From the NCBI RefSeq assembly GCF_003334335.1, contig NZ_QOWQ01000109.1: a stretch of DNA of 1,340 bases. The stretch is one strand, 5' to 3'. A program made the translations under genes and the position numbers. This stretch comes from Escherichia coli (GTDB lineage: Bacteria > Pseudomonadota > Gammaproteobacteria > Enterobacterales > Enterobacteriaceae). Shown piece by piece: positions 173 through 1,285 of the stretch (position 1 is its first letter; every line of letters starts with the position of its first letter). Under the pieces are notes generated by a model. It was not told where the DNA came from. It saw only the letters and a program-made list of their open reading frames with translations, and ran no database searches.

Positions 173-1285
173 TTAGTTCTTCTTTTCGGATCCGGCACTT
201 CTGGGGGGGAAATCCAGCGATGGCTGGATTATGTCGTCAATTAAAAATGCGGCGAGTAGATTAGCAAATATCCACGCTTTCGCGAGTTCAGGTTCCTTTG
301 CACGCAAAGCATCCAGGTGCAGCAAACTTTTGAGCCGCTTAAAAGCCAGTTCAATTTGCCATCGCAGACGGTAACAATCAGCCACTTGCTCTGCTGAATA
401 TTCATCTTCCGGTAATGATGTTAGCAATAGCACATGGCCCGCTGCTTCCAGCGTTTCCGCCTGAACTACTCGTCCTTTTCGACGATTCTCGCTGAGCAGT
501 CGGGTTTTACTGATTAATGCTTTTTCGGGAGGAAGTGATACGGCAATGAGACGTGCCGGAAAGGGAGCTCCGGCTTTTTTATTACCTGAATTGCCTATCA
601 TTACAGTGGTTTCACCGTTCTTACCGCAATCCAGCCCGCGCAGAAAACCCATCATGTCAAAGCGCATTCCTTCTGCAGTTAACCAGCGCAATCCTCGCCA
701 GTGAACCCGGACGATATAATCAGCTTCTCCAAAAGCAAGTGAGCGGATACATTCGGGACGCGAACCGAATCCCCGGTCAGCAATGCGTATCTCGTCTGCC
801 GTTTGCGCAAATCGGTCCAGCCGTTCAGCGTCTCTGCTGTCGGTTAGCTCAAAATCAGTGAACTGACAGGTATGAGGATCATATCCCATATGTAGTCGCC
901 ATTCAGCGCTGCCGCCCCCGGGCGCACTGATTGCTGTTCCATCGACAAGACGCAATCTCTTTCCGCTTGTACAACCCGTAACTGCGGCGCGTACAGCAAG
1001 TGTTTGTGCGGCAAGTATGCCAAACCAGTCGGCGGCATTCCGCAGCCGCTTCAGGAGAGCCACGTCAGATAATGTTGCAACGTCATGGAGCTGAGCCCAT
1101 GCAGTGACTTCACGTAATGACATCCCCCCGGGGCCGTAAGCCAGCCCCAGACGTAGCAGAGTTGCAGCATCACGAATTTCGCGGCGGCGGGTTAGAGCCC
1201 CGGCATTACGTGCCGAAGTATCCAGTTCTTCGGGCTTACCAATATGGGCCAGAATTGCTGACCAGTTATCGTGAGAGTAATTCAT
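173..1285 (-). CDS. insL: IS186 transposase InsL, IS4-family DDE transposase, 370 aa
   Basis: Continuous minus-strand ORF with TAA stop at 173-175. The track starts it at a GTG (1289-1291); I prefer the in-frame ATG at 1283-1285, which gives MNYSHDNW... and 370 aa. IS4-family motifs are present: VDGT (D codon 941-943), ADRGF (D codon 776-778), and YRLRWQIELAFKRLK (E codon 350-352). The ORF fills the space between the two terminal repeats. Confidence 0.93.
   Translation of the reverse strand: MNYSHDNWSAILAHIGKPEELDTSARNAGALTRRREIRDAATLLRLGLAYGPGGMSLREVTAWAQLHDVATLSDVALLKRLRNAADWFGILAAQTLAVRAAVTGCTSGKRLRLVDGTAISAPGGGSAEWRLHMGYDPHTCQFTDFELTDSRDAERLDRFAQTADEIRIADRGFGSRPECIRSLAFGEADYIVRVHWRGLRWLTAEGMRFDMMGFLRGLDCGKNGETTVMIGNSGNKKAGAPFPARLIAVSLPPEKALISKTRLLSENRRKGRVVQAETLEAAGHVLLLTSLPEDEYSAEQVADCYRLRWQIELAFKRLKSLLHLDALRAKEPELAKAWIFANLLAAFLIDDIIQPSLDFPPRSAGSEKKN

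Follow-up and report, generated by a model that had tools for sequence, protein, structure and literature searches.

Organization of the insL locus

The window, that is, the whole stretch of 1,340 nucleotides that was analysed, carries the transposase gene insL on its minus strand between two terminal inverted repeats. The gene occupies positions 176 to 1285, with its stop codon at 173-175, and comprises 370 codons running from the ATG at 1285-1283 to the codon at 176-178. When this frame was translated, neither internal stops nor frameshifts were found, in agreement with the initial annotation, which had been made from the letters of the sequence. The ORF finder lists the gene as 173-1291 (372 aa), starting from an in-frame GTG (1291) located two codons 5' of the ATG; in RefSeq and in the K-12 annotation the start is the ATG, giving a protein of 370 aa. 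The insL product is identical to K-12 InsL1 (NP_414557.1) and to WP_001300563.1.

The inverted repeat on the insL 3' side, CATAAGCGCTAACTTAAGGGTTG, is 23 nt long (positions 2-24) and is 100% complementary to positions 1318-1340, its perfect partner upstream of insL, from which the ATG lies 33 nt inward. Given these repeats at 2-24 and 1318-1340, the window corresponds to a whole mobile element essentially without flanks. It consists of 1339 nt reading CATAAG...CTTATG, preceded by one flanking C on the left (position 1) and followed by no flanking base on the right. In the MG1655 record, IS186 is annotated as 1345 nt, with three extra bases on each side.

Other features lie antisense within insL, on the plus strand. 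A terminator-like hairpin, GCCGGAAAGGGAGCTCCGGC followed by TTTTTTATTA, is located at 555-584 and covers codons ~234-244, in a region where the structural model described below has a stretch of lower confidence (residues 231-240, mean pLDDT 80). Two terminator-like sites were found in the window for 1.3 expected, which is the chance level. A 102-aa open frame spans 553-861 and is unannotated in the sampled RefSeq records. Finally, no Rfam RNA family was detected on either strand of the window.

Identity with IS186 and distribution of copies

Reverse-complemented, the window matches IS186A from E. coli K-12 MG1655 (NC_000913.3) with 0 differences over 1340 nt. IS186A, IS186B and IS186C of MG1655 are all identical to it over 1339 nt, from CATAAG to CTTATG. 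The three K-12 copies, encoding InsL1 to InsL3, thus agree with the window in nucleotide sequence, encoded protein, ends and target type; the window is oriented opposite to the K-12 IS186 annotation, the element itself being without differences. IS186, also called IS421, is a textbook insertion sequence of E. coli.

Of 5426 complete E. coli genomes searched by megablast, 2221 contain matches to IS186; these occupy 8692 places and almost all have at least 99% identity. Genomes with a match have a median of 3 copies and a maximum of 22, and about 3200 genomes have no match. The matched gene is annotated in these genomes as an IS4-like IS186B/IS421 family transposase. In several genomes, for example at 3382106-3384222 of NZ_CP069712.1, an IS1A is inserted into IS186 and splits the match in two pieces. 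IS186 is also present on 1004 plasmid records, 621 of which are predicted to be conjugative. These plasmids are mostly from Escherichia, others being from Salmonella, Klebsiella and Shigella, and conjugative plasmids carry IS186 into both Klebsiella and Salmonella.

InsL belongs to the IS4 family

To place InsL among the transposases, we compared it with family models. The Pfam model DDE_Tnp_1 matched InsL residues 107-348 with an E-value of 3.6e-26, from position 2 to position 200 of the 200 in the model. The NCBIfam model NF033592 (transpos_IS4_1) gave 133.3 bits for a curated cut-off of 115 and was the sole model above its cut-off, the IS1634 and IS701 models touching the C1 region only, with scores far below theirs. 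Because of the match to the full DDE_Tnp_1 model and of the transpos_IS4_1 score, the catalytic pattern of InsL is not a chance resemblance, and the assignment to the IS4 family proposed in the initial annotation holds.

The IS4 family is defined by a single unframeshifted gene and by the YREK signature (PMC2266710), and most of its subgroups have ~10-bp target duplications and CA ends (PMC2266710). The element has all of these characters. It encodes its transposase in one frame of 370 codons without programmed frameshift, and InsL carries a DDE triad in the N2, N3 and C1 regions of an RNase-H-fold domain. The motif Y-(2)-R-(3)-E-(6)-K, which includes the catalytic Glu, is found with exact spacing. 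The inverted repeats are perfect over 23 bp and begin with 5'-CA, as CATAAG. IS4 duplications cover about one helical turn (~8-13 bp) versus 4-6 bp in IS701, ISH3 and IS1634; direct repeats of 10-11 bp border 11 of 12 sampled copies of the element, provided that it is delimited as CATAAG...CTTATG. IS186 is listed under IS4/IS231 by Lee et al. (PMC5009759, Table 1). Neither IS186 nor IS421 is named in the text or supplements of the IS4-family review (PMC2266710).

Catalytic residues of InsL and their conservation

The first catalytic aspartate, D115, is encoded by the GAT codon at 941-943 (minus strand) and belongs to region N2, within the motif LVDGT (RLVDGTA). The second, D170, is encoded by the GAC at 776-778 (minus strand), in region N3, within IADRG (IADRGFG). 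The YREK motif of region C1 extends over 329-373 of the minus strand, with Y305 at 371-373, R308 at 362-364, E312 at 350-352 and K319 at 329-331, and its spacing, Y305-x2-R308-x3-E312-x6-K319, is exact. E312, the catalytic Glu, has the codon GAA and lies within YRLRWQIELAFKRLK. The aspartates at 941-943 and 776-778, the glutamate at 350-352 and the Y-R-E-K signature had all been called from motif resemblance in the initial annotation, and checking of the codons places them at these same residues. The interval of 350-943 given there does contain the triad; it leaves K319 19 nt outside, a trivial slip.

To assess the conservation of these residues, we searched 1.84 billion representative proteins and obtained 5136 relatives. 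InsL and 127 near-full-length relatives with 30-47% identity were gathered in a family alignment of 128 sequences. Eight residues, D115, E154, D170, R245, R308, W309, E312 and K319, are invariant (128/128), while Y305 and R193 are each kept in 127 of the 128. The two aspartates are 55 residues apart in InsL, and the 128 sequences have a median spacing of 55 with a range of 53-71. The corresponding distance is 91 in Tn5 transposase (D97-D188) and 91-103 in the Tn5 family. From D to E, the spacing is 142 in InsL versus 138 in Tn5, with a median of 139 in both families. The caveat raised in the initial annotation, that the D-D spacing is shorter than in Tn5, is therefore correct as a measurement, and, judging from the aligned relatives, this short spacing is a trait of the family and no sign of misassignment or decay.

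Alignment to Tn5 transposase and predicted structure

The residue assignment was then examined against Tn5 transposase, whose sequence was confirmed with chain 3ecp_A. With the single InsL sequence, phmmer found nothing significant in the PDB, returning one unrelated hit (1wty, E-value of 0.27). When the family profile was searched against all PDB sequences, the hits were confined to Tn5 transposase, including the inhibitor form (E-value of 0.008). This match pairs YRLRWQIELAFKRLK with Tn5 YTHRWRIEEFHKAWK, that is, with Y319/R322/E326/K333, and weakly aligns IADRG with VCDRE, which holds Tn5 D188. Aligned by hhalign to the single Tn5 sequence, the family profile covered the C1/YREK region only (51 columns, probability 71%). 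As this alignment stopped short of both aspartates, a Tn5-family alignment was needed, and one of 59 members was used. The profile-profile comparison (128 versus 59 sequences) extended over 275 columns with a probability of 90% and an E-value of 1.6e-6. It pairs LRLVDGT with LAIEDTT (D115-D97), IRIADRG with IAVCDRE (D170-D188), E312 with E326 and R193 with R210.

R193, encoded at 707-709 on the minus strand, thus corresponds to R210, the extra Arg by which the motif of Tn5 is extended to (R)YREK. In Tn5, R210 coordinates a phosphate of the non-transferred strand, and E326 is named as catalytic (PMC2566895). InsL is only remotely similar to Tn5 transposase, with 13-16% identity, and the D115-D97 pairing therefore rests on the profile-profile alignment together with the topology of the fold.

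This topology was obtained from an AlphaFold2 model built on the family alignment, with a mean pLDDT of 93.5 and a pTM of 0.90. In the model, D115 lies in the middle of the strand 110-119, D170 comes directly after the strand 165-169 and E312 is carried by the helix 309-322. In fold and topology, these predicted positions match the usual layout of a DDE triad in RNase-H-fold enzymes. With Foldseek, the top five matches of the model in the PDB were five Tn5 transposase entries (E-values of 3.7e-10 to 2e-8, TM ~0.5), followed by the piggyBac and ISCth4 transposases. Residues 1-105, encoded at 971-1285 of the minus strand, form an all-helical N-terminal region with six helices predicted at high confidence; it is presumably the end-binding domain, and its residues 46-105 align by hhalign with the N-terminal residues 1-74 of Tn5 transposase.

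A fourth invariant acidic residue, E154 (codon 824-826, minus strand), lies outside this triad. It might be argued that the catalytic residues are misassigned and that another invariant acidic residue, above all E154, takes part in the metal-binding triad, since E154 is kept in 128 of 128 sequences, sits between both aspartates in the loop that follows the modelled strand 141-149, and the two aspartates stand much closer together in sequence than those of Tn5. However, E154 aligns with Tn5 E161, which is invariant in the 59 members of the Tn5 family and yet is outside the D97/D188/E326 triad. In addition, D115, D170 and E312 each pair with a residue of the Tn5 triad and occupy canonical positions of the fold, and a spacing of 55 residues is a constant of the family. 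We consequently regard such a misassignment as highly improbable, and E154 was rejected as a catalytic residue. No description of a role for E154 or Tn5 E161 was found, including in the Tn5 study PMC2566895.

The D115/D170/E312 assignment is thus retained. With the Tn5 alignments in hand, none of the residues called in the initial annotation is displaced or substituted in this copy. This has some value for calibration: residue calls made from motifs only were exactly right, and the oddity of spacing that had been flagged turned out to be a family trait and no defect. We found nothing that counts against the residue assignment or against the identification of the element as IS186.

Ends, target sites and duplications

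A paper by saiSree et al. in 2001 reportedly dealt with the target consensus of IS186. The insertion motif of IS186 is given as 5'-GGGG(N6/N7)CCCC-3' (PMC5009759). As the window is essentially without flanks, we read target sites on 12 identical copies located elsewhere, on chromosomes and plasmids, several of which share one site across strains. Direct repeats of 10-11 bp were observed in 11 of the 12 copies, and a G-run and a C-run flank all 12, in keeping with the GGGG(N6/N7)CCCC type of target. At hokC, for instance, the site reads GGGGATCACTCCCC, and the one between nupC and pdeA reads GGGGATAATTCCCC.

All 12 sampled copies read CC|CATAAG...CTTATG|GG, forming a perfect palindrome at every site. 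From the sequences, the ends may accordingly be read in two ways: for an element of 1339 nt the duplication is 10-11 bp, and for one of 1343 nt it is 6-7 bp. The sampled sites fit both readings equally because every one of them carries the perfect palindrome. Lee et al. describe a duplicated core of 6-7 bp, with GG/CC counted with the ends (PMC5009759).

The copy on plasmid p720632_94 (locus L002, 580-601 and 1941-1962) has no target-site duplication. Its left flank, GGGGCATCGGCC, and its right flank, GGGTAAATCCCC, are unrelated, each being still of the target type, and the copy abuts a truncated HNH endonuclease gene. This arrangement is consistent with a deletion or recombination that the element would have mediated after its insertion.

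Several of the sampled insertions adjoin hok/mok toxin genes. The neighbours are the chromosomal hokC and hokE and, on two plasmids, one from Klebsiella and one from E. coli, genes of the Hok family, which suggests that hok loci may carry a GGGG(N6)CCCC target.

Transposition activity

The promoter of lon is a hot spot of insertion and the best-known case for IS186. New IS186 insertions have been reported there, at +12 bp (PMC3861542), and seven IS186 events were recorded in long-term evolution lines of E. coli B (PMC11708052). In mutation-accumulation lines derived from MG1655, there were 68 new IS186 insertions, that is, ~0.4e-4 per genome per generation (PMC5009759). These lines were founded from PFM2, whose IS content differs from that of MG1655 by two elements, one of them an extra IS186 (PMC5009759). 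Since every IS186 of MG1655 has the sequence of the window, it is the protein and the ends present in the window that made the observed insertions. On the basis of this literature and of sequence identity, the window sequence has already been shown to transpose in E. coli K-12, and the transposition competence suggested by the initial annotation is borne out.

A copy that looks intact could nevertheless be unable to move autonomously, owing to silencing, weak expression or faulty recognition of its ends, and be mobilised only by another copy. Intact catalytic motifs are by themselves no proof of activity, a sigma-70 consensus scan found no promoter-like sequence anywhere in the window, including 1286-1317, so that the insL promoter was not located, and no strong ribosome-binding site is obvious before the ATG. 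Yet a consensus scan of this kind is crude, transposases are commonly expressed at low levels, and all of the MG1655 copies, in whose derivatives the 68 insertions arose, have the sequence of the window. An inactive copy is hence a very unlikely explanation.

Taken together, the window is almost certainly a complete and functional IS186 of the IS4/IS231 group, encoding a 370-aa InsL with an RNase-H-fold DDE triad formed by D115, D170 and E312, the residues Y305-R308-E312-K319, and R193 in the role of Tn5 R210. Our analysis establishes which element this is, that its gene and its two 23-bp ends are intact, that its residues correspond one by one to the Tn5 active site, and that 10-11 bp direct repeats border its copies at G-run/C-run targets. 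IS186 has long been known and annotated; both its place in the IS4 family and its activity in vivo are on record in the literature and in RefSeq, and the find is in that sense correct but ordinary. For annotation, an IS186 copy is to be considered as a live mutagen that inactivates genes at GGGG(N6/7)CCCC sites.

Proposed mechanism and comparison with known transposases

In the literature consulted, no biochemistry or structure seems to be available for the IS186 transposase or its unusually specific target choice. By analogy, IS186 may move by a Tn5-like cut-and-paste reaction with a hairpin intermediate, an idea based on its place in the IS4 family and on the conserved (R)YREK residues; the roles of the latter in hairpin handling have been described for Tn5 (PMC2566895). 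If the reaction follows Tn5 and Tn10, two transposase molecules would pair the IS186 ends as a dimer, and the D115/D170/E312 triad would hold two Mg2+ ions for two-metal catalysis. The transferred strand would be nicked, exposing the 3'-OH of ...CTTATG, which would then attack the opposite strand to give a hairpin on the transposon end. This hairpin would in turn be hydrolysed, its formation and resolution being presumably helped by Y305, R308, R193 and K319. Finally, the target would be captured, and staggered strand transfer of the excised element followed by repair would generate the duplication.

The details of synapsis and of the hairpin may differ from those of Tn5, considering that the similarity is remote, that the C-terminal dimerisation domain is lacking and that W298 is replaced; the far tighter target specificity of IS186 likewise leaves the Tn5-type reading uncertain. 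Compared with Tn5/IS50 transposase (PDB 1MUH, 1MM8 and 3ECP), InsL is without a block of ~36 residues that Tn5 has between strands 3 and 4. It has 58 residues after the catalytic Glu versus 150 in Tn5, and is thus without the Tn5 C-terminal dimerisation domain. In Tn5 the flipped base stacks on W298, and the InsL residue aligned with W298 is V285. Next to V285, position 284 is of aromatic type (Y/F/W/H) in 124 of the 128 relatives and is His in IS186. The ends differ as well, IS186 starting with CA and Tn5 with CT. With respect to the target, Tn5 makes a duplication of 9 bp, whereas IS186 uses the specific GGGG(N6/N7)CCCC, far tighter than the target of Tn5, with a duplication of variable length.

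These differences raise the idea that the IS186 transposase assembles its synaptic complex and processes its ends in another way than Tn5. The idea draws on the missing dimerisation domain, on the ~36 residues fewer between the aspartates and on the lack of a Trp at the W298 position, as well as on a palindromic GGGG/CCCC target that is read with high specificity and a variable stagger. We consider it rather unlikely. If true, a compact IS4 enzyme of 370 aa with built-in target recognition would represent a distinct mechanistic variant, and the invariant E154 (Tn5 E161) would have a conserved, uncharacterised role.

A further comparison is with the IS231 subgroup, whose prototype is IS231A from Bacillus thuringiensis. 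For this subgroup, an end consensus of CAT-------AA--TAA---, direct repeats of 10-12 bp and a size of 1450-5400 bp are given (PMC2266710, Table 1). At ~1.34 kb, IS186 is under this size range, and its likeness to the subgroup is one of ends, direct repeats and published table: the ends of IS186 fit the IS231 consensus, and its direct repeats fall within the IS231 range.
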